A stretch of 64,000 nucleotides of DNA from Oxynema aestuarii AP17 (GCF_012295525.1 NZ_CP051167.1:5813299-5877298), one strand, 5' to 3'. Counted from the stretch's first letter, positions 717 through 32,843 are shown. A program made the numbers and translations. Notes: a model not told the origin generated them from the sequence alone.

Positions 717-1814
717 ATGCGTCACCTCTTCGCCAGCATCAGTATCATTTGTTTCGCCAGCCAACCCGTTCTCGCTCAAGTGAGATCGCCCTTAGAAGTG
801 GTCGCCGAAATGGAGATCGCGCCGGGAAATATTACGGTGACGCCGGATGGGGCGATCGTCACTAGTTTGCACCAACTGTTCGACCCCGCACAAGCGGTGG
901 TAGAAGTGCGAGAATCCGGGGAGCTGCTGCCGTTTCCCGATCGCGCCTGGAACGATCGCACTTCCGGCGAAAGCGCGATGCTCGATACGGTTTTAGGCAT
1001 TCAAGCGGATCCCCAAGGTCGGGTCTGGATGCTCGACAATGGCATGAGAGGGCAGCTAACGCCGAAGTTGGTGGCTTGGGATACGCGCGGCGATCGCCTC
1101 GACCGCGTCATTTACCTGCCCCCTCCGGTCACGGTTGACGGCTCGTTTGTCAACGATTTGGCGGTAGACTTAACTCACAATTATATTTACATTGCCGATC
1201 CGGCACCCGGCGATCGCGCCGCGTTAATTGTGGTAGATCTGAGTACTGGGGTTTCTCGGCGCGTCCTCCAGGGCGATCGCTCGGTAGTGGCGGAAGATGT
1301 CCAATTGGCGATCGATGGCGTTCCCCTGACCCAAACGCGCCCGGATGGAACCGTCGTCAGTCCTCGGGTCGGCGTCAATCCGATCGCCCTCGATGGGGCG
1401 GACGAGTGGCTGTATTTCGGCCCGATGCACGGCACTAGTTTATATCGAGTGCGAACTTCGGATTTGCGCGATCGCACCCTCGCCGATGCCGAATTGTCCG
1501 CCCGCGTCGAACGCTACAGCGACAAACCGATTTGCGATGGGATCTCGATCGATCGCGAGGGCAACATCTACATTACCGATTTGGCGGCTAAGGCGATCGG
1601 TGTCATTACGGGCGATCGTCGCTATCAACTCCTCATCACCTCCGATCGCCTCTCCTGGCCCGATGCCTTCAGTTTCGGCCCCGACGGCTATCTCTACGCG
1701 ATCGCCAACCAACTCCAACACGCCCCGGCGTTCAATGCAGGGGACGATCGATCGCGATCGCCCTTCTACATCTTTCGCCTCAAACCGTTAGCCCCGGGAA
1801 TCGTCGGACGCTAA
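717..1814 (+). CDS. secreted beta-propeller protein (yellow/MRJP- or SGL-like family), function unknown
   Basis: ATG start followed by an N-terminal signal peptide MRHLFASISIICFASQPVLAQ. Repeated blade-like motifs are present (YIYIADPAPGDRAALIVVD, GNIYITDLAAKAIGVI, DGYLYAIANQ). The family assignment rests on memory only. Confidence 0.5.
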   Translation: MRHLFASISIICFASQPVLAQVRSPLEVVAEMEIAPGNITVTPDGAIVTSLHQLFDPAQAVVEVRESGELLPFPDRAWNDRTSGESAMLDTVLGIQADPQGRVWMLDNGMRGQLTPKLVAWDTRGDRLDRVIYLPPPVTVDGSFVNDLAVDLTHNYIYIADPAPGDRAALIVVDLSTGVSRRVLQGDRSVVAEDVQLAIDGVPLTQTRPDGTVVSPRVGVNPIALDGADEWLYFGPMHGTSLYRVRTSDLRDRTLADAELSARVERYSDKPICDGISIDREGNIYITDLAAKAIGVITGDRRYQLLITSDRLSWPDAFSFGPDGYLYAIANQLQHAPAFNAGDDRSRSPFYIFRLKPLAPGIVGR

Positions 1815-1862: not shown

Positions 1863-3941
1863 TTAAAAACTGCACGGTCCCGTTCTCCCGTTCGGGCAAA
1901 TCGTCAAATTGTTCGTCTTCACCCGCATCAGAACGCTATTTGTAAAGTCGGCGCCAGCGAGTTTAGCACCGCTCAAATCCGCCCCCGTTAAATCCGCTCC
2001 CGTTAACTTTGCACCGCGCAAATCCGCATCAGTTAAATTGACATTTCTCATCGTCGTATTTTGCAAATTTGCCTCGACCAAACTCGCCGAACTTAAATTA
2101 AAATCCGTCAAATTCAATCCGGCTAACTGGCGGTTACGACGCGGCAAATTAACAATTTTCCAATTCAGCAAATCTTCCGGATCGATTTTCGTCGTATTAA
2201 TATCGATATCCGCATCTAATAAATTCGCTCCCGACAGGTTCGCATTGCTCAAATTGGCGCGGACTAAATTCGCACTCCCTAAGTTGGCAAATTGCAAGTT
2301 AGCATTCTTTAAATTCGCCCAATCCAAGCTCGCATTCATCAGTATGGCACCGCTTAAATTGGCATTTTGTAAGTTACTTCCGTTGAGGTTTGACCCTTGA
2401 AAATTGGCCTCGATCAAGCTGCTCTCTTCGAGATCGGCGTTATTCAGTTTGGCGTCGCTAAAGTTGACGCGATCCAGATTTAATCCCGCAAAATTTACTT
2501 TCGACAAATCCCGACTCGTGGCATTTTTGACATAGCCTTTCCGCAAAGCCATATTAAACAAAGGTTGGGAAAGTTTGGGATTGAGTAAGATAATGAAAAA
2601 CGGACTGATCGACGCGATTAATAAGAGAAAAACCACCGAGGTTTTAAACGCATTCCCCCAGCGACTGTTTCGCGAAGTCGTAAACGCCGAATCGAGCAAG
2701 CGGGAGTTTTCTTGATTGGCAACTTCAAGCTGCCATTGGGTTTGAGAAAGTTGATGTTGCAGGTCGAGGCGTTCGCGGTCGGCGCGATCGAGTTGGCTTT
2801 GCAATTGGCTGCGTTCTTCGTTGACCCAAGAGAGTCGAGATTCTTGGCTTTGGGTTTGTTGTTGGCTATTATTCAGTTGGCTTTCAAGATCGCTAATTTG
2901 CAAGCGCAATTGATTAATTTCTGCGTTGGCGCGATCGAGTTCTTCTTGGGCGCGATCGCTCATTTCAGCCAACATTTGCTCGAACTGATTCGGCTGACTG
3001 GTTTCGACTTGTGCCGTTTCGAGTTGACCCCGGGCTTCGGCGAGTTCGGTTTGTAATTGCCAGTAAGCGGTTGCCGCTTGTTGTAACTGCGGTTGGAGGT
3101 CGCCGAGTTCTTGGCTGCACGCCGCGAATTCCGATTTTGTTTTCTCTAATTCGGCGTGCAGTTGCGATCGCTTCTGTTGAGAAGCAATCAGTTGTTTTTT
3201 CGTATGTTGTAGTTGTCCTTGCACTTGTTTGAGCGAGGCTTCGCGCAAGGCATTTTTGGCTTCGGCTTCTTGTAATTTCGGTTCGACTTCTTTGAGCGCT
3301 TTTTCCCGGGCAGATAGCGCTTTTTCGGTCAATTCTAATTTATCTTGCAAGCGCCAGTAAGCCGTTGCCGCTTCGTGAATTTGCGATTTAAAAGTTTGAT
3401 TTTCCCGGTCGATATCTTCGAGTTGCTGTTGAGTTTGTTCGAGTTGCTGCTGGAGATCTTCGTAAGCTTGTTCTGCTTCTTTTAAAAAGGATTGGAGTTG
3501 CGATCGCTCTTTGAGGGCGGTTTTATGTTCTTTTTCTAACGTTTCGTACTGCTGGTGAAGCTGCCAGTATGCCTCTTCCGTTTGCTTAAAGAGGGATTCT
3601 AACTCCGATCGCTCCTGTTCGGCGAGTTCGAGTTGGGTTTTGAGTTGCGATCGCTCCATCTGCTGGGGCGCCGCCTCTTCCTCCGTCGCCCCCTTCAAAC
3701 GCTTCTGGGTTTGCTCCCACTGCTGGCGGGCCCACATCAATTGCGCCCGTTCCTTCCTGAGAAATCCCTCGGGAATGCGCCCCAAACTCAGGGGATACGG
3801 CGTCAAGTCCCAGCCGCAAGTCGAACAAGTTTTGACTTGTCCTTCCGCATATTGGGTCTGACAAACGGGACAATGCGCTACGGTCAAAGCGGTGTACTCC
3901 TGTGTTGGTCGGTCGTCACGGGCAAACATCTTCATCGCCAT
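1863..3941 (-). CDS. zinc-ribbon / coiled-coil / single-TM / pentapeptide-repeat protein
   Basis: The N-terminus carries CPVCQTQYAEGQVKTCSTCGWDLTP (CxxC-x12-CxxC). About 300 aa of coiled coil follow, with repeated AxxAYWxLQ motifs, then a TM helix VVFLLLIASISPFFIILL. The C-terminus has A(D/N)LxG pentapeptide repeats (NLTDADLRGAKLTGADLTGADLSGAKLAGADF). The annotated start is GTG at 3977. The nearest ATG codons are at 3941, 3935 and 3929. Confidence 0.75.
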   Translation of the reverse strand: MAMKMFARDDRPTQEYTALTVAHCPVCQTQYAEGQVKTCSTCGWDLTPYPLSLGRIPEGFLRKERAQLMWARQQWEQTQKRLKGATEEEAAPQQMERSQLKTQLELAEQERSELESLFKQTEEAYWQLHQQYETLEKEHKTALKERSQLQSFLKEAEQAYEDLQQQLEQTQQQLEDIDRENQTFKSQIHEAATAYWRLQDKLELTEKALSAREKALKEVEPKLQEAEAKNALREASLKQVQGQLQHTKKQLIASQQKRSQLHAELEKTKSEFAACSQELGDLQPQLQQAATAYWQLQTELAEARGQLETAQVETSQPNQFEQMLAEMSDRAQEELDRANAEINQLRLQISDLESQLNNSQQQTQSQESRLSWVNEERSQLQSQLDRADRERLDLQHQLSQTQWQLEVANQENSRLLDSAFTTSRNSRWGNAFKTSVVFLLLIASISPFFIILLNPKLSQPLFNMALRKGYVKNATSRDLSKVNFAGLNLDRVNFSDAKLNNADLEESSLIEANFQGSNLNGSNLQNANLSGAILMNASLDWANLKNANLQFANLGSANLVRANLSNANLSGANLLDADIDINTTKIDPEDLLNWKIVNLPRRNRQLAGLNLTDFNLSSASLVEANLQNTTMRNVNLTDADLRGAKLTGADLTGADLSGAKLAGADFTNSVLMRVKTNNLTICPNGRTGPCSF

Positions 3942-4121
3942 TGCTTCCCCCTGAGAGATTATCTCGCAACTTATCACTTTTTAACCGTTTTCGGACAAGA
4001 GTCAAGTCCCCAGGGCCTACATTTACCGTAGCGGCGAGTGGAACTGGCGCTTTTCGCCGCGATCGCTAACATTGGGGAAACAAAGCCACACTGACCCGTT
4101 CCCCAATCCGAAGTTTTCCCT

Positions 4122-6680
4122 CTATTTCGGAAGATCGGCGATCGCGAACCTTAACATCGCTTCCCCACTTAAATTTTCCCTGACGATTCGGCTTTTTTGA
4201 CGCTTCACCATCCCCTCGTAAAAATTGCGAATCTCGCGACCGTTGCCGAAATTAGACGGGCGATTGGCGTACAAATCTTGACACCAGTCTCTAACTTTTT
4301 CCGAGACTTCTGGCGGACAAATTCGCCGGGACTGTTCGCATAAACTCAGGAATATTTGATGCAATTCGTCGGGATCGTAATCGGGGAATTCGATCTGATA
4401 GGCGATGCGAGAGGTTAACCCGGAATTCGCAGCTAAAAATTCGGCCATTTCTCGGGAATATCCGGCGAAAATGACCACGAGGCGATCGCGGTAATTTTCC
4501 AAATACGGGACTAAAGTATCGATCGCCTCCCGTCCGAAATCCGTAGCGTGACCTCGGGACAGGGCGTAGGCTTCATCGATAAATAATACCCCATCGATCG
4601 CGCGATCGATCGCCCCTACGGTTTTCGCCGCCGTTTGTCCCACGTATCCCGCGACTAAATCCGGGCGTCCGACTTCGTGAAAGTCCCCTTTTTTCAATAA
4701 TCCCAGGGCTTTAAAAATTTTGCCGACCAACCGCGCCACGGTCGTTTTTCCCGTTCCCGGATTGCCAGTGAAAACCATGTGATAGGTGTGAGATTCGCCG
4801 TCGGGATCCAACCCCGCTTCTCGCAGGCGGCGGTTGGCGAGTTGGGTTTCGACTAATTCTCCGATCGCCGCTTTCACCGATCGCAGTCCCGCCAGGCGAT
4901 CGAGTTGCGCTAACAATGTGTCCAAGGTCTCGCGATCGCCCTTGCCGCGATCGGCCAACTCCCGATACTTTTGCGGTAAATCTGCAAGCTCAAACGGCGA
5001 TCGCACCGGATCGCTGCCCGTTTCGATGACTCGGAGCGATCGCCGTTCGTCGAGTTCCTGAAACAGATTTTCCACCAATCCCGCATTCCCAAAGTTTTCG
5101 TCCCGTTCGGCGTACAATTGCGCGAATACATCCAACAAAGTCCCCTCTAGATCCGGGGACAAGTCGGCGGCGACGGCGGCGACGCACTGCTGTAGAATTC
5201 CCAACAACTCATCAGGCGTGTAATCTGCAAAAATAATTTCTGTCGGGAACCGACGGCGCAAACCGGGATTCGCATCGAGAAAGGCGTCCATTTTCGCCGG
5301 ATATCCCGCCACGATCGCCGCGAACCGATCGCGATCGTCCTCCAGACGTTTGAGTAACGTTTCGATCGCCTCCCGTCCGAAATCCCCGTCCCCGCCTTCG
5401 GTCAACCCATACGCCTCATCCACAAACAAGACGCCATCGATCGCGCGATCGATCGTTTCATTGGTGCGTAAATGGGTTTGTCCGACATAACCCGCCACTA
5501 AATCGCGTCCGCCGACTTCTACCAGATGACCGCGCTGTAATAACCCCAAATCTCGGTAAATTTCGCCGATTAAGCGCGCGACCGTCGTTTTTCCCGTTCC
5601 TGGATTGCCTTTAAACACCAGATGCAATCGGGGCGGATCGATCGCCTTTCCCTGCTTCGCCCGTTCTTGTTGCACTTGCAGCGATCTCGCCCGACGGCGG
5701 ATCGTTTCTTTGACGTTTTGCAAGCCGATCGCCCCTTCTAATCGTTGCAGGGCAGGGGTTTCGCTGACGTCCCCCGTCAACCAACGCCGCGATCGCGCCG
5801 CTTTCAGCGAGATTTCCTCACTTTCATTAAAGCGATCGTACCAGGTATTGAGCGATCGATTTTCCGCCGCCATCCATTGCATTAACTTTGCACGATTTTC
5901 CCACGGAACTGCTTTGCCGAACTTCAGCCGAAAATAATCGCTTAACGCCTCTATCTCTTTTGCGCTAGGGGCTGCTAGTCGCACTAAATTACAACTGCGG
6001 CGATCGCCCTGCTGCCGATTTATTGCATAATTTGACAAAAATGTAAAGCCGACTTGCTGACAAAACCCTTGCAGGCGATCGATCGTTTCGTGGTGAAAAA
6101 TAAAAATACACAGGTTGCGATTACTCGGGGGAAGACGCGACCATTCTAAAGTGCGACCGAACAGTTCGCGGCGGTTGTCGAAGTTCGCCAAATCTTCTGC
6201 ATTGGCAAAAACGATCGCCGATTTTTGGCGAGTATCCTGCATTAACGTTTCAAAATAGGGCAAAATTTGGACATCTTGCAGGCGTTGGGGCGGTCTTGCT
6301 TCGGTTGAGGGTGCCGGACTGGGCGATACGGCGGGATTGGACGATGCAGTTTGCTTTCCTAACAAGCGTCGTTTGCGTCCGAGAGGACCGGGGGTGACTT
6401 GCATCGGTCGGTCCGTCGGTGGGGGGGTGGAGGGGTCTGCTGAAGGTTGCAACCGCGTGCGATCGCGCGATGGGCGATCGAGGAAATAGAGTTTTTTAAC
6501 GCCGGAATAGAAGACGATGCGATCGTATCCTCGGGATTTTAAATAGTGATGGAGAATGCTTTCAATATCTTGTAAAACGAGATCCTCCGTGCAGAAACTA
6601 TCGCTGGTTTGCGTTCCGTACAGCACGAAAAAGCGATCGCCTGCGTGTAAATTCAACCCCGATGTTACTCGTTCTACCAC
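4122..6680 (-). CDS. AAA+ ATPase with two tandem CbxX/SpoVK-type modules and a ~290-aa N-terminal domain of unknown function
   Basis: Two Walker A motifs GNPGTGKTT(V)ARL are present. Each is preceded by the CbxX-style L..L.GL..VK helix and followed by DExx and arginine-finger regions. The start is a GTG codon. Confidence 0.8.
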
Positions 6681-6807
6681 AATCGATTGGCTTGTTTTAT
6701 TTTTAGATTATTTTAAACTAAGTTTGTTCTAATTAAAAGAGTTTGAAATTAACTTTTTCTTAAAGGGCGGGTGGGATACCCGCACCATATTTAGGAGTTT
6801 TGACTTC

Positions 6808-7908
6808 TTATTGTTCCTCGACTAACCAGCGCCAAATTTTAACGGTGCGATCGCCACTGCTGCTCATTAAACGGCAGCCATCCGGACTGAAAACGACCGA
6901 ATATACGGTATTGGCATGTCCGGTTAAATGGCAAATTTCTTGACCTGTTTTGAGGTTCCAGAGTTTAATCGTATTGTCAGAACTGGCACTCGCGATCGTG
7001 CGTCCATCCGGGCTAATAGCAATGTCATTAATGAAGTCCGAATGACCGATTAAAGTTTGAGTATTCGTCCCCGTTTCTAAATGCCATAATTTAATGGTTT
7101 TGTCCAAACTCGCACTGACTAAAATCTGGCCATCTGGGGTGAAAACGAGGGAGTAAATTGAGTTGGAATGTCCGGTAAAGGTACCAATTGCTTCGCCTTT
7201 TTGTAAATCCCAAAGTTTAATCGTGTTATCTGCACTACCACTGGCTAAGATGCGACCGTCGGGACTGAGGGCTAACGAGTGAACGTAGTCATCGTGTCCG
7301 GTGAGGGTGCGAAGGATTTCCCCCGTTTGCCAATTCCAAAATTTAATCGTGGTGTCGTCGCTGGCACTGATTAAAATGGGGATGGAAATCGAATTGTCGC
7401 CGATCTCTCCATAAATGAGGTCGCGAAGGTAATCGGAATGTCCGCTTAAAGTGTGGAGGAGTTCTCCAGTTTGGAGGTTCCAAATTTTGATGGTTTTGTC
7501 GTCACTCCCGGTGGCGATCGTTTGGCTGTCCGGGGCGATCGCGAGACAACTGACGGATTTAGAATGTCCGCTTAGGGTATGGCGTTCGGATCGGGTGTGT
7601 AGACCCCAGATTTTTACAGTTTTATCGTAACTGCTGCTGGCCAAGGTTTGACCGTCCGGAGCAATGGCGACTTGACTGACGGAGTTGGTATGACCTGTTA
7701 AGGTACTTTCGCATTCAATCAGTTGATATTTTAAAAATTCTTCGATATAGCGATCGAGGCGGGCGAGTTGGTGAGATTGGCGGCGGGCGCGATCGCCTAA
7801 AGTTTGCAGTTGAGATTGTAGTTGTTCTCGTTCTTGTTCGCTTTGTTGCAAGCGTTCTTCTAGGCTCTTGATTTTCTTTTCTAAGAAGGAAAAGTTATCG
7901 GATACCAT
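6808..7908 (-). CDS. WD40-repeat protein with an N-terminal coiled coil
   Basis: ATG start. The N-terminus reads KIKSLEERLQQSEQEREQLQSQLQ. At least seven WD repeats follow (GHTNSV...SSYDKTVKIW, GHSKSV...DDKTIKIWN, etc.). Confidence 0.85.
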   Translation of the reverse strand: MVSDNFSFLEKKIKSLEERLQQSEQEREQLQSQLQTLGDRARRQSHQLARLDRYIEEFLKYQLIECESTLTGHTNSVSQVAIAPDGQTLASSSYDKTVKIWGLHTRSERHTLSGHSKSVSCLAIAPDSQTIATGSDDKTIKIWNLQTGELLHTLSGHSDYLRDLIYGEIGDNSISIPILISASDDTTIKFWNWQTGEILRTLTGHDDYVHSLALSPDGRILASGSADNTIKLWDLQKGEAIGTFTGHSNSIYSLVFTPDGQILVSASLDKTIKLWHLETGTNTQTLIGHSDFINDIAISPDGRTIASASSDNTIKLWNLKTGQEICHLTGHANTVYSVVFSPDGCRLMSSSGDRTVKIWRWLVEEQ

Positions 7909-7958
7909 GAGGGGTTTAGATTTTAGACTTTAGAGTTGAGATTTTAGATTGATGCTGT
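7909..7958. repeat. short AGATTTT/TTTAGAG-type intergenic repeat
   Basis: The sequence ggtttagattttagactttagagttgagattttagattg lies between two minus-strand genes. Confidence 0.6.
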
Positions 7959-7999
7959 AGGGAATTGGGAACAACTTCCAGGCCGACAATAGACCCGCC

Positions 8000-9853
8000 C
8001 TACTCCACCGCAGAAACACCCCATATCTTAATTGTGCCATCATCGGAGCCACTAACGATCGTATTGCCATCTTGATTGATGGCGGTACATAAAACATACC
8101 CTTCGTGACCGTATCCGGGGGTTTTGACGCCGGGGATCGTGTGAATGAGGCGACCGCTTTCGAGATGCCAAATTTTAATGGTTCCGTCGTCGGAACCACT
8201 GGCGAGGGTATGTTGAGAACTGATGGTGACGGAACTGACCGGACCGGAATGTTCGGAAAGGGTATGCAGGAGTTTTCCGGTGCCGAGATTCCAGAGTTTG
8301 ATCGTGTTGTCGTTGCTTCCACTGGCGAGAATGCTGCCATCGTAGTTGACGGCGACGGAACAGACGGAACCGCTATGTTCGGTGAGGGTATGGATGAGTT
8401 CTCCGGTGAGGAGATTGCGGATTTTGATGGTGTTGTCGTTACTGCCACTGGCGAGGACGTTTCCTTGGGGGGAGATGACGACGGAACGCACGGCGGTACT
8501 GTGTCCGTAGAAGGTGGCGAGGAGTTCTTGGGTGTCGAGGTTCCAGAGTTTGATCGTTTTGTCGGCGGCGCCACTGGCGAGGGTGCGTCCTTTGGGAGAG
8601 AAGGCGACAGTGTTGACCCAACCGTTATGACCGTGGAGGGTGGTCAGGAGTTCGCCACTTTGCAAGTCCCAGATTTTGATGGTGTTGTCGCCGCTTCCAC
8701 TGGCGATCGTTTTACCGTCGGCGGAGATGGCGACGGCGATCGCCGATCCGAGGTGTCCGCGTAAGGTTCGCATCGGCTGACCGCTTTCTAAATCCCAAAT
8801 TTTAACGGTTTTGTCATTACTCCCACTGACTAAAATGTTGCCTTGAGGGGCGATCGCCACCGATCGCACGGCGTCGTCATGTTTTAAGGTGCGCACGCAG
8901 CGAAACAGGCGATAGGGTTTGTACTGTTCGAGGGCTTGGCGAGCCCGGGGGGAACGAGTCCGCTTGAGAATGGCGTAGGCAAATTCTTGGATGGCTTCGG
9001 AGCGATCGCCTAACGCATCGATCAGCAATTCGACGGTATGAGATTCGGCGTGAGTGTGGGTGAGATTTTCGTTCGTTTTTTCCAGACTCTCGCGGGCTTT
9101 TTCGAGTTGGCTTTGCAAGGTGCTGACTTGGCGCCGTTCGCTGTGAATTTGCGATTGCAATTCCAACCGTTCGCGATCGGACTGTTCTAATTTGGCTTTT
9201 AGCTGGCTAATTTGGGCTTGTAAGGCGGCGATTTCGGCTTCTTTGGCGACGGAGGTGCCATCTGCACGATTGGTGGCGCGATTCTCCTCGATCGCCCCTA
9301 CGCGATCGCCGTCGGAAGGAGCAGTCGTTGGGGATGGTCTCGGGGCTTCGATATGGGACCAAATACGACTGAGTTGGGTTTGGACCTGCGATCGCTCGGT
9401 GTCACTTTGTTCTAATTTAGAGAAAATCAGGCCGATCTGATTCTCGAAATGTTCGGATTGGGTTTCGTGAAAGAGGCGATCGCGCTCTAACTCCTCCTTA
9501 AAATGATTGCGGTCTTGGCTGACTTCATCCAACCAGGCAAACAGTTGACTGACTTGTTCTTGAATGTGAACTCGTTCTTTCGCCGCGAGATCGAAGCGAC
9601 CCCAAACTTTCGAGAGTTGTCCTTCAATATCGGCCAATTTCCACTCTAATTCTTTGACCGATTTACCTTGGTCGGTCGTTTCTGCCCAAATTTTGCGCGC
9701 CCATTTCAACTTAGCTCGCTCTTTTTCGAGATAGATTTCCGTCAAATTTTCAGCAAGTTGAGGCGGTTCGGGAGTTAAATCCCACCCGCAATTCGAGCAG
9801 GCGATCTGCTCTCCTTCGACATACTCGGTTTGACATACCGGACATTCAGACAT
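8000..9853 (-). CDS. zinc-ribbon / coiled-coil / WD40-repeat protein (paralogous N-terminus to 1863..3941)
   Basis: MSECPVCQTEYVEGEQIACSNCGWDLTPEPP...EKERAKLKWAR begins at ATG 9853 (the annotated GTG is at 9877). A coiled coil follows. The C-terminus has eight or more WD repeats (GHLGSA..., GHNGWV..., SNDNTIKLWN...). Confidence 0.85.
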   Translation of the reverse strand: MSECPVCQTEYVEGEQIACSNCGWDLTPEPPQLAENLTEIYLEKERAKLKWARKIWAETTDQGKSVKELEWKLADIEGQLSKVWGRFDLAAKERVHIQEQVSQLFAWLDEVSQDRNHFKEELERDRLFHETQSEHFENQIGLIFSKLEQSDTERSQVQTQLSRIWSHIEAPRPSPTTAPSDGDRVGAIEENRATNRADGTSVAKEAEIAALQAQISQLKAKLEQSDRERLELQSQIHSERRQVSTLQSQLEKARESLEKTNENLTHTHAESHTVELLIDALGDRSEAIQEFAYAILKRTRSPRARQALEQYKPYRLFRCVRTLKHDDAVRSVAIAPQGNILVSGSNDKTVKIWDLESGQPMRTLRGHLGSAIAVAISADGKTIASGSGDNTIKIWDLQSGELLTTLHGHNGWVNTVAFSPKGRTLASGAADKTIKLWNLDTQELLATFYGHSTAVRSVVISPQGNVLASGSNDNTIKIRNLLTGELIHTLTEHSGSVCSVAVNYDGSILASGSNDNTIKLWNLGTGKLLHTLSEHSGPVSSVTISSQHTLASGSDDGTIKIWHLESGRLIHTIPGVKTPGYGHEGYVLCTAINQDGNTIVSGSDDGTIKIWGVSAVE

Positions 9854-9921
9854 GGCCTTATTCACTCTCAGATTCACCCTGAAACACGTTCTATTAAGGG
9901 AAACTTTCGAGCAGATTGAAG

Positions 9922-9993
9922 AAGTTTAGAGTTTAGAGTTTAGAGTTTAACTTTTAAGTTTTAAGTTTTAAATTTGAGATTTGGAATTTTAGA
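9922..9993. repeat. tandem heptamer repeats (agtttag x3-4, then ttttaag x3)
   Basis: The run reads gaagtttagagtttagagtttagagtttaacttttaagttttaagttttaaatttgagatttggaattttagag. Confidence 0.7.
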
Positions 9994-10235
9994 GATAAAT
10001 TTTATGCTCTAAAAAGTGCTTGAAAGCTTCTTTTAGTTTATCAATTCGATCGCCGGAGAAATGTTAGGAAAATTACTCGAATCCGTTTTCTGTTTCGATC
10101 GCGTCTATGGCTGCGATCGCTGGCAACGGCAAAACTTGAGATGGGATGTTTCAGAGCAGCGATCGCCGTCGAGGGGGTCTTGAATGGTTCGGTTAAACCC
10201 ATCGGCGCCCCCTGCTCAAAATCGGGCGATCGCGC

Positions 10236-11771
10236 TTATTCCTCAATCCGATCGCGACGGGATCCCCGACGCTCTCCTCCCGACTCGCGACTCTCGCTTC
10301 CCGACGGGCGATCGCCCCACAGACGGCGATAGTCTTCGCGAGGGCGATCGTAGCATTCCAACTCGCCGATCGCCTCTACCCCCGCCTCGTCCAGCAGTTG
10401 GAAAATCGCCCGCGCGTTTTCCCGAGTGGCGGTTTCGTCGATCAGGGTGGGACTGAAACTGTTAATCGAGATCGAATTGGCGCCGAAGTCGCGATCCGGT
10501 GCAATCACCGTGACGACTTCATCCCCGGCGATATTTTTCACTTTCACCGCATAGGCTTCGCGGCGATCGCCCGTCTGATAACACGCATCGGTTTCGGGAT
10601 TGACCAGAGTATAACCCAAAGATCCGAGAACTTCGACCACACAATCGGCAATTTCGGCGCGCATTTGCGAACTGAGAATCGCCAATTTCGCCGCCGCGAC
10701 GACTTCATCGAAACGAGGTTGCAGGTTTTCGAGGCGATCGGCGATCGCTTCGAGTTGGGTCGTCGTGAGGGTCCGTTCCCCTTGTTCTAACTCCGTTTCG
10801 AGCGTCGCGAGTTCCCCTTCGTACTCGCTTAACGCCCCTTTCGACCAGTAATCCACCTCGACTTTAAAGCGTTCCGCCTCCGTTCCCTCGCCGATTTCGA
10901 GTTCGCACTCGCGATTGGCGTTGACTTGAGCGAGTAACTCGCCTAAATCCGTCGAAATCGCGTGATAGAGTAACAGCCATTGTTGTTCTTGGCGTTCCAG
11001 GTCGAGCCGCAGTTGATTCAATTCTAGATAAGTTTTCTGAGTCGTGGCGATCGCCGCTTCGCCGAGTCCCGCCGTCAGGTTGTCCCGCGCCAGCTCCAAC
11101 TGGCGCCGTAAAGCGCTTAACTGTCCCGGCGCGAACTGTTCGTGGCGGTATTGGCGATCGGTTTGTTGCCAGATAGCGTCCACATCGGCCCACAACGACT
11201 CGGCGAGTTCGATTTTGCGGCTTTTTTCCGCTTCGATCCCCCGCACGATCGCCTCCAATTGTCCCGTCAACTTGGCTTCGGTGGCTTCTCTCGCAGCCCG
11301 TTCCGTGGCGATCGCCTCCTGGAAAGCGCGATCGCGCTGTTGCAGCGTCCTCAGCCATTCCTGGCGCTGCTGTCGGTGCAGTTGCAAATATTCCTGACGC
11401 TGCCGTTCCCATCCCAGACGCGCCGTGGCGTCGAGGCGATCGGTTTGGCGCTGGAGAGCTTGCGCCTGTTGAGTTTGCAGCCGTTCCACCGTCGAGCGAA
11501 ACTCCTGTTGCTGTCGTTCCAGACGGCGGGCGTTTTCCCGTTCGAGATCGGCTAAATTCGTCCTCAAGCGATCGGCGAGTTGCGCTTGATGGAGCGCCCG
11601 TTGCTGCAGGGGGAGTAACTGCCGCTCGAACGCTTGCTGGGAGTGCGATCGCAGCAAATTCAAGCGCTCCGGTAAGTCGGATTGCAGCGATCGTAGACGA
11701 CTGTCTTGTTCTTGCAACCGCCGCCATTGAGACTCTTCAACGCGCACGTAACGCCGTTTTTCACCGCTCAT
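10236..11771 (-). CDS. long coiled-coil protein with an unknown C-terminal globular domain
   Basis: ATG at 11771. Gln/Arg/Leu-rich heptads span roughly the first 380 aa. The C-terminal domain VVEVLGSLGYTLVNPETDACYQ...AIFQLLDEAGVEAIGELECY has no recognisable motif. Confidence 0.6.
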   Translation of the reverse strand: MSGEKRRYVRVEESQWRRLQEQDSRLRSLQSDLPERLNLLRSHSQQAFERQLLPLQQRALHQAQLADRLRTNLADLERENARRLERQQQEFRSTVERLQTQQAQALQRQTDRLDATARLGWERQRQEYLQLHRQQRQEWLRTLQQRDRAFQEAIATERAAREATEAKLTGQLEAIVRGIEAEKSRKIELAESLWADVDAIWQQTDRQYRHEQFAPGQLSALRRQLELARDNLTAGLGEAAIATTQKTYLELNQLRLDLERQEQQWLLLYHAISTDLGELLAQVNANRECELEIGEGTEAERFKVEVDYWSKGALSEYEGELATLETELEQGERTLTTTQLEAIADRLENLQPRFDEVVAAAKLAILSSQMRAEIADCVVEVLGSLGYTLVNPETDACYQTGDRREAYAVKVKNIAGDEVVTVIAPDRDFGANSISINSFSPTLIDETATRENARAIFQLLDEAGVEAIGELECYDRPREDYRRLWGDRPSGSESRESGGERRGSRRDRIEE

Positions 11772-11875: not shown

Positions 11876-11908
11876 CCCAAAAAAAAGCCCGCCTCAATCG
11901 GCGGACTC
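11876..11908 (-). terminator. rho-independent terminator of sodB
   Basis: The minus strand reads ...GTCCGCC-GATTGA-GGCGGGC followed by T9. On the plus strand this is aaaaaaaaagcccgcctcaatcggcggac. Confidence 0.65.
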
Positions 11909-16593: not shown

Positions 16594-19062
16594 ATGGTTG
16601 GAATTGTTATTGTTTCTCACAGCGAGAAATTAGCCGCCGCCGTGCGAGAACTGACACGGCAAATGGTCGGATCGGCAGTAGAGATCGCGATCGCGGCGGG
16701 GATTGACGACCCGGAAAATCCCTTTGGAACCGACCCGATGCGCGTGCTGGCGGCGATCGAAGCGGCAGATCGCGGCGAGGGAGTATTGCTGTTGATGGAC
16801 TTGGGCAGTGCGGTGATGAGTGCGGAAATGGCCTTAGAATTTCTAGAGGCCGATCGCCGTTCCCGGGTGCAATTGTGCGAAGCTCCCTTAGTCGAAGGGG
16901 CGATCGCCGCCGCCGTGGCAGTCTCCACCGGGGCGAACCTCGATCGCGCGATCGCCGAAGCCCGCAGCGCCCTGACCCCGAAAGCCTGCCAACTCGGAAT
17001 CGAACCCGCGTCCCCACCCGCGCCCAACGCCGCGACGGGGGAGCCGACCTCACAACTGCGCCTCACGGTCTGCAACCGCCTCGGCATTCACGCCCGACCC
17101 GCCGCCCTGTTCGTCCAAATCGCCTCACAATTCACCGCGTCGATCGCCGTCACCAATCTCAGGCGCTCGTCCGAGGCGATCGACGGGAAAAGTATCATCC
17201 AACTGATGACCTTGGGGGTGCGTCAGGGGGACGAAATCGCGATCGCCGCCCGGGGAATCGACGCCGGGAACGCCGTGCAAGCCTTGAAAGAACTGATCCA
17301 GTGCAACTTTCACGAAGGGGACGCCGACGTCCCGGAAGTCGCCACCAGCGCGCCGACAGTCCCGACCGGGGAAGGGGTTCAGGGAATCGCCGCCTCGCCG
17401 GGAGTCGCCCTCGGGCCACTCGTTCGCTATCACCCCGTACTGCCGGAAGTGCGCGAAGCCATGGCAGAAGACCCGGAAAGTGAGTGGGATACGTTGCAAT
17501 TGGCGGTACAAAATGCGCGCCGTCAAATGCAAATGCTCGCTAATGCCATGTCTTCCCCGGAAACTGGGGCGATTTTCGAGGCCCATCAGTTATACTTGCA
17601 AGATCCCTACCTCTGGAAAGGGATCCGTCACGATATTTTCGTGGAAAAATACGGGGCGATCGCGGCGTGGAAGCGGGCGATCGACGAGACCGTAAGGCGC
17701 TATCAAAATCTCGACGATCCCTATCTCCAGGCGCGATCGAGCGATTTAAACGATATCGGCATTCGCGTTTTGCGCGCCTTATCCGGCAATAGTAGCGTCC
17801 GCCTCGAACTGAGGGATCCGGGGATTTTGCTGACGGGAGACCTGACCCCTTCGGAAGTCGCCCAACTCGATCCCAAAGTGATTTTAGGCATCTGCACCAC
17901 CGGAGGCAGTGCCAATTCTCACAGCGCGATTTTAGCCCGAAACCTCGGCATTCCGACGGTGATGGGACTCGGCGATCGCCTCGCGGGGGTTGCCGACGGC
18001 ACCGAAATCGCCCTCGACGGCGACACGGGAGAAGTGTGGGTCGAACCCGATCGCGATCGCCGTCGCACCCTCGCCGCCAAACGACAGGTGAGCGAATCTC
18101 GGGCGATCGCCCCCTCGCCGACCCAAACCCGCGACGGACGGCGCGTTACCCTCCTCGCTAACGTGATGGGCGTCCCCGATGCCCAACTGGCGCGCAATAG
18201 CGGCGCCGAAGGGGTGGGCCTGTTGCGAACCGAGTTTTTTTATTTCGATCGCCCCCTTCCCCCCGGCGAAGAAGAACAAGCACAAGTCTATCGGGCGATC
18301 GCCGATATTTTCAAAAATCGCCCCACGGTGATTCGCACCCTAGATGTCGGCGGGGACAAACCCCTACCCTGGTTGCAGTTACCGCCGGAAAATAACCCCT
18401 TTTTGGGCTTGCGCGGCATCCGCCTGCTCCTCGATCGCCCGGATCTGTTTAAAACCCAGTTGCGCGCAATTTTAAAAGCCAGTCACGGACGCCAAATTAA
18501 AGTGATGTTTCCCACCGTCGCTACCTTAGCCGAATGGCGCGCCGCCAAAGCCCTGCTCGATCGCGCCAAAGCCGAACTCGACGGGGAAGACCGGGCCTAC
18601 AACCGGGCGATCGCCGTGGGGATGATGGTCGAAATTCCCGCCGCCGTGGCGATCGCCGATCGCTTCGCCGCCGAGGTAGACTTTTTCAGCATCGGAACCA
18701 ACGATCTGACCCAATATTATCTCGCCGCCGATCGCACCAACCCCCAAGTGTCTCCCTTCGCTAACGTCCTCGAACCGTCCGTGTTGCGAGCGATCGCCCA
18801 GACCACCCGCGCCGCCGGGGCTGTAGGAGTTCCCGTCGCCGTCTGCGGCGAGTTGGCTTCCAATCCGGCGGCGGTCCCCCTTCTCGTCGGTTTGGGCATC
18901 GCCGAATTGAGCCTCAACCCCCGGGCGATCGCCGCCGTCAAAGCCGCGATCGCCCGTTTTAGCGTTCCCGAAGCCGAGGCGATCGCCGCCACCGCCTTGC
19001 AACTCGATTCTGCCGAAGCCGTCCGCAACTTCCTCCAGCAGCAGTTTTCCGCCCTCAGTTAG
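16594..19062 (+). CDS. dhaM: dihydroxyacetone kinase phosphoryl-donor subunit DhaM (EIIA-Man-like + HPr + full Enzyme I fusion)
   Basis: The N-terminus MVGIVIVSHSEKLAAAVREL...LLLMDLGSAV is a PTS EIIA(Man)-type domain. The HPr domain follows (RLTVCNRLGIHARPAALFVQIA). A complete EI is also present, with GGSANSHSAILARNLGIPTVMG and the PEP-utilising TIM barrel. Confidence 0.8.
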   Translation: MVGIVIVSHSEKLAAAVRELTRQMVGSAVEIAIAAGIDDPENPFGTDPMRVLAAIEAADRGEGVLLLMDLGSAVMSAEMALEFLEADRRSRVQLCEAPLVEGAIAAAVAVSTGANLDRAIAEARSALTPKACQLGIEPASPPAPNAATGEPTSQLRLTVCNRLGIHARPAALFVQIASQFTASIAVTNLRRSSEAIDGKSIIQLMTLGVRQGDEIAIAARGIDAGNAVQALKELIQCNFHEGDADVPEVATSAPTVPTGEGVQGIAASPGVALGPLVRYHPVLPEVREAMAEDPESEWDTLQLAVQNARRQMQMLANAMSSPETGAIFEAHQLYLQDPYLWKGIRHDIFVEKYGAIAAWKRAIDETVRRYQNLDDPYLQARSSDLNDIGIRVLRALSGNSSVRLELRDPGILLTGDLTPSEVAQLDPKVILGICTTGGSANSHSAILARNLGIPTVMGLGDRLAGVADGTEIALDGDTGEVWVEPDRDRRRTLAAKRQVSESRAIAPSPTQTRDGRRVTLLANVMGVPDAQLARNSGAEGVGLLRTEFFYFDRPLPPGEEEQAQVYRAIADIFKNRPTVIRTLDVGGDKPLPWLQLPPENNPFLGLRGIRLLLDRPDLFKTQLRAILKASHGRQIKVMFPTVATLAEWRAAKALLDRAKAELDGEDRAYNRAIAVGMMVEIPAAVAIADRFAAEVDFFSIGTNDLTQYYLAADRTNPQVSPFANVLEPSVLRAIAQTTRAAGAVGVPVAVCGELASNPAAVPLLVGLGIAELSLNPRAIAAVKAAIARFSVPEAEAIAATALQLDSAEAVRNFLQQQFSALS

Positions 19063-21928
19063 CAGGTTTGTGCACGACCTCTTTCGCCCGCATCGGCGCT
19101 TCTAGTGCTTTGGCAATGCGATCGCGTGCTTCTTCTAAATGAGCCCGAGTTTGCACGTCCAGCCGTTTACCCTCCTTATCCAAACGGCGATCGATCGCCG
19201 CGTGCAGGTCTCGCAATTGGTAGCGCGCCAAAGCCCGGGCATCTTCCGGCGGATCGAGGGTGCGCAAGGCGATTATCAAATCTAAAAAGCTGGTCGCCTC
19301 CATTGCCGCCTCGATATTCGTTCGCAAGGCCATGTGCAGCAGTATATTTAAGTGTTCCCGTTGCAAACCGCGCCGCAACACCGTAATTTCCCGACGCGGA
19401 TCGCGATCGTCGGACAGTTCGCTCCAAATTTGCGCCTGCAAGGTCTCGAACAGTTCTCCCAAGCGCAGACTGTCCCCATTGGGATTGCTCAGTTCCCCGT
19501 CGCGCAAGCGATTGAGCCGATCTGTAGAGAGTAAGTTACTCAGAATTAAGGTTTGGTGTCCCAAGAGGCGATCGAACAAGGGATAGTCCAACCGTTCCCA
19601 GACGATCCAATTGCCCCAATGATCCCAGCGATCCGGCGCCAAACGGGCGATCGTTTCCGGGGAAAAGTTAAAGGCATCTTCCGCAAACACGCGATCGCCG
19701 ATCGCCGCCAGGGCTTCCCGTTGTCGTTCCACGGCGATCGCTTCAAACGGCGGTTTGGCCCCCGGATCTCCCGCATGGTGGCGGTGGAAACGTTGACCGC
19801 CGATATAGCGCGTGAGGTCGTAAGCGTAACCGAAATAGTAATTTAAGACCATGTGGAAGCGATCGCGCAGTTCGCTGTAACTTTCTCCCGGAAGGGGGTA
19901 TCTTCGATCCAATTTGTCCCACACTTGGCGGGCGTTATCCATTTGCCATTGGGAATAGCGCAACGGATCGCCGCTCAAATCCCACAAGTTACTATCGGGA
20001 TAGACTAAATCCATGCTGTCTTCGTCGGTAGCATACTCTAAGCCCGGTTGCGGCGCGCGGCGGGCGATCTCTTGCAGCACGTCCCATTCTAATTCCGGCG
20101 TGGGGGCGTCGATGGGCCGATAGCCGTATTCCACCACCCAGCGATCGTAAGGACCGACGATAACCGGGAAGTAGTCCCCTTGTTCGACCCCTTCCGGGGC
20201 GATATTGACCGCCACGTAGTCCATCACCGAGCCGACCATGCCCTCGTTGCGCGTCAGCAGCACGTTGTTTAAGTCTTCCGGCATACGCCAGGTGCTACCT
20301 TGGAAGTTGTGGCGCAATCCCAACACGTGACCGACCTCGTGAGCGGTCAGCCAGCGCACGAACTGATGCACGTACAGTTCCATTTCGTCCTGATTCGGTA
20401 GCACGTCGTGTAAGGTACTCAGGGCTAAGGCGCCGAAACGGGCTTGGTTGGTCGCGGCGAGGGCGAAGCAAGGACGGCGATCGCCTCGAATTTGTGCCAG
20501 GGCGCGCAGTTGGGAAAGGGACGCCGGGTTGGATTGTTGCAGTTGGGCGGCGATCGGACTCGGGAGCTGGCGATCGACGAAGTGAGAAATTTCTGCCCCC
20601 AGTTCGCAGGTGAGGGGATTGACGAGGGCGCGATCGCCATCGGCCAAGGCCCCGTATTGTTCCCGGATCTGTCGCACGATTCCCCCATCTAAAATGACGT
20701 CGGCGTCCAAGATTTCCCCCGTTAACGGGTTGACCCGCGACGGCCCGATCCCGGCAAACCAGGAGTCGAGGGTATTCGACCAGACGATAACGTTGTATCG
20801 CACGTCTGCCGGATCCCAGTCCGGGCGATCGGGCATTTGTCGCGCCTCGATCGCCCCGATAAATCCCGCTTGCTCGAAAGCGTCATTCCACATTAAAATC
20901 CCCTCGCGGATGGCGTCGCGATAGGGGAGGGGAACCGCGTTGTCTATCCAAAAGACGATCGGCTGTTTTGGCGGCGATAGGGGCGCGCTGGGGTCTTGTT
21001 TTTCTAAGTGCCAGCGATTGATATAGTTGACGAACGGATCCGGTTTGCGCGAATTGGAGAGATTTTGATAAGTCGTGAGAAAATAGCCGAGGCGATCGTC
21101 TGCCAAACGCGGACGATAACCGTTGTTCGTCGGTAAGAGCGATAAACTTGTGCGAATTTTTAATTGAAAGGCGCGCGAGTCGGGAACCGTCGCCGGACCC
21201 AACCAGGACATCGGACCGGAAAAGCCGTAGACCGTCTCGATTTCGGCATTTTCGGGGAAACCTTGGACGCGATCGAGATAGGAGGTTTCGCTATTTAAAG
21301 TATACATATCTCCTAAGCTCCAGGCGATCGCCGTGCTCAAACTGCCCCCCTCTCCCATCAAAAAGGGTTTGAAATCGACTAACAAGCTGTTTCGTTCCGG
21401 ATGAATACTGGTTAGAGGTAAGGTGTAAATCGGCGAATCGCTGAACGAGCGATCGCGCGATCGCCATTGCGGATCTCCCGCTTGGGTACGAAATAAAGTA
21501 TTGGGAACGACGACATCAATTTTATGATTTCTGCGTTTAAATTGAAAGATAAAATCGGAAAGGGGTAAGCCACGATAGAGTCCGAGGGAACCAATTCCCG
21601 AAGAGATTGTCGCGATCGCCAGGAAGTTGCGATCGAGCTGTTCCGGTTGAATTTCTAAATAGATCTCTTCTTTTTCTACATTTCGATAAAAGGTTAATAA
21701 GCCTTCAATCTTTTCTAAGTCCTTCGTCACTTCATCGAACGGCTTTAAGGGGGATTCGTCCTCGGATTCTTCTTCCGTTTCCGAGGACGAAGATTCCGTA
21801 TTTTCAGCCAGTTCTATCGGAACCTCAAAGCGCGGCGATTTCCCTTCGCGGAAGATGCGGGCGCTAGCAGACACACCCACTTCTAACCATAAGTAGATTC
21901 CCGCGATCGCCAAAGACAAAACTTTCAT
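19055..21928 (-). CDS. large secreted zinc metalloprotease (metzincin HExxHxxGxxH motif; DUF4953/DUF5117-like)
   Basis: ATG start with signal peptide MKVLSLAIAGIYLWLEVGVSASA. The HEVGHVLGLRHNF motif is present. The protein is 957 aa. Its 3' end overlaps the dhaM 3' end by 8 bp, and the two genes converge. Confidence 0.8.
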   Translation of the reverse strand: MKVLSLAIAGIYLWLEVGVSASARIFREGKSPRFEVPIELAENTESSSSETEEESEDESPLKPFDEVTKDLEKIEGLLTFYRNVEKEEIYLEIQPEQLDRNFLAIATISSGIGSLGLYRGLPLSDFIFQFKRRNHKIDVVVPNTLFRTQAGDPQWRSRDRSFSDSPIYTLPLTSIHPERNSLLVDFKPFLMGEGGSLSTAIAWSLGDMYTLNSETSYLDRVQGFPENAEIETVYGFSGPMSWLGPATVPDSRAFQLKIRTSLSLLPTNNGYRPRLADDRLGYFLTTYQNLSNSRKPDPFVNYINRWHLEKQDPSAPLSPPKQPIVFWIDNAVPLPYRDAIREGILMWNDAFEQAGFIGAIEARQMPDRPDWDPADVRYNVIVWSNTLDSWFAGIGPSRVNPLTGEILDADVILDGGIVRQIREQYGALADGDRALVNPLTCELGAEISHFVDRQLPSPIAAQLQQSNPASLSQLRALAQIRGDRRPCFALAATNQARFGALALSTLHDVLPNQDEMELYVHQFVRWLTAHEVGHVLGLRHNFQGSTWRMPEDLNNVLLTRNEGMVGSVMDYVAVNIAPEGVEQGDYFPVIVGPYDRWVVEYGYRPIDAPTPELEWDVLQEIARRAPQPGLEYATDEDSMDLVYPDSNLWDLSGDPLRYSQWQMDNARQVWDKLDRRYPLPGESYSELRDRFHMVLNYYFGYAYDLTRYIGGQRFHRHHAGDPGAKPPFEAIAVERQREALAAIGDRVFAEDAFNFSPETIARLAPDRWDHWGNWIVWERLDYPLFDRLLGHQTLILSNLLSTDRLNRLRDGELSNPNGDSLRLGELFETLQAQIWSELSDDRDPRREITVLRRGLQREHLNILLHMALRTNIEAAMEATSFLDLIIALRTLDPPEDARALARYQLRDLHAAIDRRLDKEGKRLDVQTRAHLEEARDRIAKALEAPMRAKEVVHKPAN

Positions 21929-32557: not shown

Positions 32558-32843
32558 TTGCGGTTTGAGTATACAAATAGCTTTCCGATCGCTCGGCGGT
32601 GGTTTCGATCCCTCGGGGGCGATCGGACGGTAACGAGCGATCGCCCCCGAGGGTAAAGATATCACTTAGAACTAAAAAGAGGATGACCTGTCGGAATGTG
32701 CTGAACATTATCCCCTCAACGGCTCCTCGCAGGGCGAAATCTTTCAGTTCGAGGAAGGCGACGCACCCGAGCTAGCAAACCTCGATTTTTCTTAACCTTA
32801 TTGTAAAGATTTTCGGAGGCGATCGCCCGTCCCTGCTCCGATC

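Follow-up and report, generated by a model that had tools for sequence, protein, structure and literature searches.

A pair of core genes conserved in filamentous cyanobacteria and beyond, with a variable zinc-ribbon periphery in cyanobacteria: a candidate conflict-type system in Oxynema aestuarii AP17

We analysed 64,000 nucleotides of the filamentous cyanobacterium Oxynema aestuarii AP17 (NZ_CP051167.1:5813299-5877298, called the window throughout) and, within them, a run of five genes designated A to E. Two of these, one for an AAA+ ATPase (B) and one for a protein (E) that has no Pfam domain and whose homologues are always named "hypothetical", form the invariant core of a cluster that recurs in other genomes. 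Genes that open with a short zinc-ribbon module, here called the handle and present on A and D, form its variable periphery. We see an even chance that the five genes are one functional system, a reduced local version of a conserved multi-gene cluster, with a nucleoside triphosphate (NTP)-gated, adaptor-coupled role of the conflict type. An earlier, sequence-only reading of this DNA had described a same-strand five-gene cluster built around the shared zinc-ribbon module. All five open reading frames (ORFs) do lie on the minus strand where that reading had placed them, but the centre of the cluster is a different one, since E and B are found together without the zinc-ribbon protein in Chloroflexota and Actinomycetota.

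Related loci (numbered with the prefix L) were retrieved through B in genomes or through E in metagenomes, and never through the handle. B is present at 51-66% identity over its full length in many filamentous cyanobacteria, and E at 39-56% identity in the same assemblies. Note that the genome scan with the B alignment responds to generic P-loop patterns, that 72 of its 80 loci are unrelated tandem-AAA+ loci, and that only L001-L007 and L069 are informative. Of the 23 cyanobacterial E genes that are followed by 3 kb of sequence or more, 20 are accompanied by a same-strand B no more than 6 kb away. A handle gene lies between E and B in 9 of 25 E-B pairs and starts within 2.5 kb after B in 17 of 20 pairs, some handle genes overlapping B's stop codon. 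In total the 25 E-B loci contain 37 handle copies; the handle is carried by two to five peripheral proteins per locus and never by E or B. That the genes are co-conserved elsewhere, as one would want of a genuine cluster, is borne out both by the adjacency of E and B and by the handle genes that follow B.

Might the five genes nonetheless be chance neighbours, that is, abundant zinc-ribbon/coiled-coil, WD40 and pentapeptide proteins that happen to lie beside an AAA+ gene? Proteins with WD40 or pentapeptide repeats are indeed widespread in cyanobacteria, handle proteins are also found on their own, and the window contains another pentapeptide protein (58071-59069, plus strand), a free-standing one of 332 amino acids (aa) with 35-38% identity to the C-terminal domain of A. 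We regard this explanation as very improbable. It is contradicted by the 37 handle genes, which were found in independently retrieved loci and keep a fixed position and orientation relative to B. Furthermore, the handle is found in only 205 clusters among 1.84 billion representative proteins, and the copies on A and D are the only two in the window.

Gene families were counted by unsupervised clustering of all ORFs in 40 loci. E is present in 39 of these, B in 34, and the family of handle plus coiled coil in 26. Three further families, each supported by Pfam and NCBIfam, occur in 18 of the 40: an Hsp70-like protein, a coiled-coil protein of about 354 aa, and an NrdG-like radical S-adenosylmethionine (radical-SAM)/Fer4_12 protein, the NrdG match of which (1e-25 to 1e-27) stays below the cut-off. 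The usual gene order is E, a handle protein in some cases, B, again a handle protein in some cases, and then the Hsp70-like, 354-aa and radical-SAM proteins. In L002 and L006 the NrdG-like gene overlaps the start of E, making the two translationally coupled, and in L004 a long ORF call merges both. On the mobilizable plasmid pCAL6303.02 of Calothrix PCC 6303, genes for Hsp70, a TPR protein, an NrdG-like 4Fe-4S protein, E, B and a handle-coiled-coil protein lie on one strand; two copies of E or B are present in some genomes. The sequence-only reading had recognised no enzymatic effector, which holds for the window but not elsewhere, where the loci include the NrdG-like radical-SAM protein, the Hsp70-like ATPase and, sometimes, fusions of the handle to dynamin.

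The pair also extends beyond the cyanobacteria. E lies directly upstream of a full-length B in two Chloroflexota metagenome-assembled genomes (MAGs), three Streptomyces genomes, an uncultured actinomycete MAG and Actinomadura. In these lineages E retains 26-29% identity (35% in one Streptomyces locus, over a fragment of 115 aa), while the figure for B is 37-41% over its full length, including the N-domain. No handle gene was found in the Chloroflexota and Actinomycetota E-B loci examined; in one Streptomyces locus a WD40 protein and an Hsp70-like protein follow B. Judging by these loci, the E-B core is older than the cyanobacteria.

B consists of an N-domain (D0) and two AAA+ modules (D1 and D2). 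Pfam detects AAA (4e-30) and AAA_lid_6 (8e-21) in two stretches each, and the closest solved structures in the PDB are CbbX (5e-50) and EccA1 (6e-48). D1 and D2 clearly belong, on sequence grounds, to the CbbX/SpoVK/EccA clade of AAA+ proteins, and the earlier description of two CbbX/SpoVK-type modules agrees with the Pfam, NCBIfam and PDB matches. GNPGTGKT and DEAY are invariant in both modules across 18 aligned B orthologues, all 18 of which also retain the Walker A, Walker B and AGYVGQT pore-loop motifs, with the pore-loop Tyr, in D1 and D2. D0, previously held to be unassignable, can be assigned as a degenerate AAA+ fold; it has no P-loop, so that nucleotide binding of the usual kind is not possible, and it contains a disordered Pro/Ser-rich insert of 53 aa (residues 80-132). 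On this view B would be an AAA+ machine of the ring type, in which one module is dead and the other two are live. Because D1 and D2 keep their Walker A, Walker B and pore-loop motifs, we read B as a putatively active ring, and this retention fits polypeptide threading, a view that leans on what is established for CbbX and its AAA+ relatives. While B shares the AAA_lid_6 lid, the Walker motifs and the pore-loop Tyr with the CbbX/SpoVK/EccA clade, it is unlike these proteins in that its modules stand in tandem behind a degenerate third AAA+-like module, without an EccA-type TPR and outside any Rubisco context.

Is B simply a known member of this clade? The NCBIfam CbbX model (TIGR02880) matches at 1.5e-113, yet its 378.8 bits stay below the cut-off of 459.25 even though two modules contribute; as neither the window nor the related loci contain rbc genes, we reject B as a CbbX equivalog. 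The EccA model (TIGR03922) likewise reaches 413.9 bits against a cut-off of 466.65 with both modules contributing, the N-domain is AAA+-like rather than TPR, and no ESX genes lie nearby, which excludes an EccA equivalog as well. Only the SpoVK model exceeds its cut-off (499 versus 423), and it does so because the scores of two modules, in one cyanobacterial protein of 852 aa, are added up. SpoVK is a single AAA+ protein of about 320 aa from endospore formers, and cyanobacteria are not known to form endospores; architecture and organism argue against a SpoVK equivalog.

A related scenario is that the system is a dedicated chaperone or activase for specific clients, for example one that activates Rubisco in the manner of CbbX or that regulates tetrapyrrole enzymes via GUN4. 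Of the solved structures, CbbX and EccA1 come nearest to the modules of B, the NCBIfam CbbX model matches B, and GUN4 is the commonest partner of the handle (see below). We nevertheless consider this scenario improbable: CbbX and EccA scores remain below curated cut-offs, no Rubisco, chelatase or type VII secretion genes occur in any neighbourhood examined, no one client would account for such varied partner domains, and the E-B pair is also present in non-photosynthetic Actinomycetota.

E had been described as a plain coiled coil. An AF2 model built with 40 homologues (mean confidence, pLDDT, 72.5) instead predicts a long helical bundle (residues 109-385) with a beta-hairpin insert, followed by a small C-terminal alpha/beta domain (397-463), with residues 1-105 disordered. 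Foldseek returned no match to this model at E <= 0.001, the structural matches being generic. In spite of an overall identity of about 27%, an N-terminal peptide, MSGxKR..V...E..R (window 11650-11771), is kept across Cyanobacteria, Chloroflexota and Actinomycetota in a comparison that includes L002 2816-, L006 8595- and L069 8533-. The Ser-Gly of this peptide is invariant, as is Gly387, which is followed by a nearly invariant aromatic residue. The peptide and Gly387 could be a site of modification or of threading; the E alignment contains no RVxG glycyl-radical motif. A phage origin was rejected, as no homologue of E was found in 50,697 phage records. There is also a second type of E paralogue without an adjacent B, in L081 (20734-22173), L095, L097 and L107, with about 46-52% identity to E (39% in L107). 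These paralogues adjoin genes for 354-aa and radical-SAM proteins except in L107, and have an Hsp70-like gene nearby except in L097; the one in L081 has a hydrophobic N-terminus.

The handle is what A and D share. Both proteins begin with a Cys4 zinc ribbon and a Trp-rich helix, 51% identical over the first ~65 aa (BLASTP E = 5e-21), with the invariant pattern CPVCQT..Y.EG....CS.CGWDLTP.P...E..L.KERA.L.WAR..W, so that the common N-terminal module noticed earlier is confirmed. A profile made from both copies was run with HMMER exhaustively against the 1.84 billion representative proteins; of the 205 clusters matched at E <= 0.001, 115 remain at E <= 1e-10. The match begins at residue 1-2 in nearly all clusters, and the family consensus reads MxxCPVCxTEYxExxxxxCxxCGWDLTPYP...IPxxFxxKExxxLxWAxxxW. 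Pfam offers generic zinc-ribbon matches, all below threshold, and NCBIfam and PADLOC scans of A and D found no family that covers the handle. The module is, in other words, no annotated housekeeping domain; its sequences appear to define a family of their own, with no existing Pfam or NCBIfam model.

What the handle is attached to varies widely. Pfam scans of 149 family members identify GUN4 as the commonest C-terminal partner (27), followed by FGE-sulfatase (14), WD40 (10), TPR (4) and SepF (3), with one member each for FtsK, PP2C, SH3 and the C-terminal domain of the RNA polymerase alpha subunit; the remainder carry a coiled coil only. A membrane-type helix resembling that of A is present in 14 of the 149. 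L118 (7418-9823) encodes, between E and B, an 801-aa fusion of the handle to a dynamin-like GTPase (PADLOC LeoBC, 2e-15). We also note that the top match of the module search, a metagenomic protein of 2105 aa (P0121), contains 44 tandem matches to the helix half only (profile positions 32-64); either its repeats have expanded or the sequence may be an artefact of assembly.

In Oxynema the C-terminal parts of the peripheral proteins are of two kinds. A has one strongly hydrophobic segment of 19 aa (Kyte-Doolittle mean 2.7) and pentapeptide repeats well above the gathering threshold (Pfam 1.5e-40, 136.8 bits), as expected from its earlier description as a protein with a transmembrane helix and pentapeptide repeats. 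C and D score 272.8 and 263.2 bits for WD40, with seven Pfam stretches each, all above gathering thresholds. D had been credited with eight or more blades, but seven repeats are readable in its sequence, in line with the seven Pfam stretches. C does have the WD40 repeats and the coiled-coil N-terminus (a short one) ascribed to it, and can be described more precisely as a handle-less paralogue of the C-terminal half of D, to which it is 42% identical over 372 aa. A Scytonema locus (L081) has an orthologous gene for a zinc-ribbon, coiled-coil and WD40 protein between E and B, 45% identical to D.

The layout of the cluster is given in Table 1. Spacers measure 382 bp (E-D), 91 bp (D-C), 127 bp (C-B) and 180 bp (B-A). 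The start of E is supported by homologues that begin MSGEKRRYV, and the ATG of D yields MSECPVC, in agreement with the handle family. For A the longest ORF extends to 3977, and a start directly before CPVC, as elsewhere in the family, is excluded; because the codon there is GTA (Val), we place the start at the plausible ATG at 3941. Promoters and terminators were scanned for by consensus matching only and their total counts are at chance level, the single notable site being a hairpin that sets the cluster apart from a sodB-like gene upstream on the same strand. The same consensus scan found no minus-strand terminator-like site of similar strength between E and A. It did pick out a promoter-like site at 10013-9986 in the E-D spacer, where an AAACTCT heptamer is also repeated in tandem in three to four copies (~9920-9950, minus strand), about 70-100 bp upstream of the start codon of D.

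Table 1. Position and composition of the five genes and of the hairpin that precedes them (window coordinates)
Feature	Position	Strand	Description
E	10236..11771	-	core protein, 511-512 aa
D	8000..9853	-	zinc-ribbon handle (~9650-9853), then coiled coil, then 7-blade WD40 propeller (~8003-8905)
C	6808..7908	-	short coiled coil and 7-blade WD40 propeller; no zinc-ribbon handle
B	4122..6680	-	core ATPase, 852 aa; D0 ~5757-6680, D1 ~5019-5747, D2 ~4125-4928
A	1863..3941	-	handle (~3678-3887), coiled coil of ~400 aa, hydrophobic helix (~2583-2639), pentapeptide-repeat domain (~1866-2525)
Terminator-like hairpin	11885..11908	-	9-bp stem with 6 GC pairs, T-run; between the sodB-like gene and E

The papers and family libraries searched describe neither the E-B pair nor the handle, nor any system that has CbbX/SpoVK at its centre and partners of this kind; the closest mention (SpoVK in the CoCoNuT paper) belongs to a different context. 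The most instructive comparison is with the vWA-MoxR and GTPase-centric conflict systems (Kaur, Burroughs, Iyer, Aravind; eLife 2020, 2021), in which GUN4, FGS, pentapeptide and WD40 domains are coupled via small adaptor domains (PMC7159879, PMC8195603). As here, those systems combine a conserved NTPase core with variable, multi-copy partners drawn from GUN4, FGE-sulfatase/FGS, WD40, pentapeptide, TPR and FtsK domains, possess a small shared N-terminal adaptor, prefer filamentous or multicellular lineages, and have Hsp70 and DO-GTPase-type genes in the extended neighbourhood. The differences lie in the core. A to E contain no MoxR (AAA_5), vWA, VMAP, DO-GTPase or GAP1; the NTPase is a three-module AAA+ protein of the CbbX/SpoVK class, paired with the novel protein E; and in place of a helical effector-associated domain (EAD) or a Death-like domain the adaptor consists of a zinc ribbon and a helix, which the core proteins lack. 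Neither CbbX nor SpoVK occurs once in PMC7159879 or PMC8195603.

Membership of the vWA-MoxR ternary systems was rejected on the Pfam result that A to E contain no MoxR, vWA or VMAP domain, and a DO-GTPase/GAP1 system was rejected in the same way, there being no such genes in the cluster and no homologue of them in the window. Nor is the handle an EAD, which would be the same domain on core and effectors, since the handle is never on E or B; the coupling logic may be similar to that of EADs but would need a heterotypic contact. Cyanobacterial orthocaspases and Ser/Thr kinases, too, carry the same C-terminal modules (GUN4, FGE-sulfatase, WD40) behind a different N-terminal head. Unlike theirs, the head here is a non-catalytic zinc-ribbon handle plus coiled coil, on genes tied to an AAA+ core.

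PADLOC has catalogued systems to offer as well, namely Lamassu and IetAS, given weak matches of A and D to LmuB (5e-8 to 5e-7) and of B to IetA (6e-14). We put next to no weight on this possibility. The LmuB matches cover the zinc-ribbon/coiled-coil stretch only, with no ABC/SMC ATPase head, and Pfam reports an ATPase domain in neither A nor D; the IetA match covers the generic AAA+ core only, and the NCBIfam IteA model scores 31.9 against a cut-off of 510. Moreover, no LmuA effector or IetS protease lies nearby, and the cluster has no protease gene. The PADLOC matches to LmuB, JetC and IetA were therefore rejected as similarity of coiled coils or of the AAA core.

How might such a system work? 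We propose that the handle would be a shared tag by which exchangeable sensors or effectors dock on the E-B core. Using ATP, B would thread or pull apart coiled-coil assemblies or the N-terminal peptide of E, and its pulling would gate the release, assembly or activation of the C-terminal domains. In Oxynema these peripheral tails are the WD40 propeller of D and the membrane-anchored pentapeptide domain of A; elsewhere they are GUN4, FGE-sulfatase-like, TPR, SepF or dynamin domains. Judging by genomic context, the likeliest role is that of an NTP-gated conflict system of the immunity or programmed-death type, working like the vWA-MoxR/GTPase-centred systems without being one of them.

Several features of this context favour an accessory, mobile, conflict-type role. 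Because the cluster is carried on a plasmid, because E or B is duplicated in some genomes, and because its neighbours include conflict genes, transposases and, in 10 of 40 related loci, members of a family from which one protein was run against Pfam and proved to be a DO-GTPase (PF19993, 2.4e-14), we lean towards such a role. Among the neighbours in related loci are CHAT, VMAP-C/MoxR/FGE-sulfatase, nSTAND1-WD40, Uma2 and XisH/XisI genes; note that VMAP-C/MoxR-type genes occur only as separate neighbours, in Sodalinema (L084), and that the DO-GTPase-family gene of the Calothrix plasmid locus (L116 16906-22576) lies on the strand opposite to the cluster. The repertoire of handle tails matches the effector and sensor domains reported for cyanobacterial conflict systems (PMC7159879, PMC8195603), and also that reported for cyanobacterial orthocaspases. 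The sequence-only reading had left the choice between a scaffold assembly and a conflict system; context narrows this towards the latter.

A number of observations weigh against a conflict role, or against its extension to Oxynema. The Hsp70-like, 354-aa and radical-SAM partners have no homologue anywhere in the window; the Oxynema copy is therefore reduced or partial, or its partners lie elsewhere in the genome, and it may depend on such genes. No nuclease, protease or pore-forming effector was recognised in the window, nor a DO-GTPase homologue. What borders the Oxynema cluster is a set of housekeeping genes (sodB, an ABC ATPase, an orotate-pathway fusion, phosphoenolpyruvate (PEP) carboxylase) and not a defence island, and PADLOC has no model for an E-B/handle system. 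Solitary handle proteins exist away from E-B, and a Nostoc flagelliforme plasmid without E carries a handle-FGE-sulfatase among metal-transport genes. Because neither E nor B carries the handle, its docking on the core is something we infer. Finally, the 45-65% identity of E and B across many filamentous cyanobacteria is also compatible with a vertically inherited cell-biological function.

This last point leads to the one alternative that we take to be a serious, if rather unlikely, contender: a cell-biological remodelling machine of filamentous bacteria, in which E and coiled-coil proteins form membrane or cytoskeleton assemblies that B takes apart, as Vps4 does with ESCRT-III or NSF with SNAREs, while Hsp70-like and dynamin-like proteins aid the dynamics of membrane, septum or thylakoid. 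Such a machine would suit the range, which is mainly filamentous Cyanobacteria, Chloroflexota and Actinomycetota, the presence of SepF, FtsK and dynamin among the handle's partners, the dynamin genes that recur near related loci, the membrane-type helices in A and other family members, and the housekeeping flanks in the window. On the other hand, the structural matches of E are generic, with none in Foldseek at the threshold used; E gave no sign of homology to SNAREs or ESCRT-III; and the N-domain of B is AAA+-like, not the double-psi barrel or MIT domain of NSF/SNAP-SNARE, p97/Cdc48 and Vps4/ESCRT-III, its D1 and D2 coming from another AAA+ clade. More importantly, handle partners vary in copy number and domain type, and a mobilizable plasmid, duplicates and recurrent conflict-gene neighbours would be unusual for core cytoskeletal machinery. 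Named model cyanobacteria are also absent among the named homologues, a weak argument given that only about a quarter of the matches are named.

The surroundings of the cluster yielded further observations. Beside cyanobacterial E-B clusters, an unannotated partner family of about 400 aa recurs with the DO-GTPase family; DO-GTPase systems have been described as nearly absent from cyanobacteria (Kaur et al. 2020, PMC7159879). In the window, the only other conflict-type gene noticed encodes an 880-aa CHAT-domain (caspase-like) protein (61315-63957, minus strand). Directly downstream of the cluster, on the opposite strand, lies a gene for an MRJP (major-royal-jelly/yellow-family) protein with a signal-peptide-like N-terminus (717-1814, plus strand). 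Further away are an 822-aa fusion of EIIA-Man, HPr and Enzyme I (PEP-utilising; 16594-19062, plus strand), a multiphosphoryl-transfer protein of the phosphotransferase-system type in a cyanobacterium, and two paralogous large Met-zincin proteins (DUF5117 + DUF4953) 8 kb apart (19055-21928 and 29657-32665, both minus strand), the second beside an MBOAT acyltransferase and a 1042-aa protein with a DUF1574 tail.

Returning to the conflict-type reading, we tentatively suggest, at less than even confidence, that E and B, ancestrally together with the NrdG-like radical-SAM protein and often with the Hsp70-like ATPase, constitute an unrecognised NTP-gated immune or programmed-death class in three filament-rich lineages, with the handle as a new adaptor domain that would plug WD40, GUN4, FGE-sulfatase, pentapeptide and dynamin modules into the core, and with the N-terminal peptide of E modified by the radical-SAM protein or threaded. 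Three families without a Pfam, NCBIfam or PADLOC model, namely E, the zinc-ribbon-helix handle and the degenerate AAA+ D0, are here tied into one conserved system. If this is a conflict system, the CbbX-class AAA+ architecture would join the MoxR-, STAND- and GTPase-centred ones, and the handle would provide a new adaptor domain by which to find sensors and effectors. A remodelling role would instead make it a bacterial counterpart of NSF or Vps4 that acts on coiled-coil assemblies. On either reading, dozens of cyanobacterial proteins now named "hypothetical" or "GUN4 / WD40 / SUMF1-family" acquire a concrete hypothesis, and one that centres on a small core of two genes.

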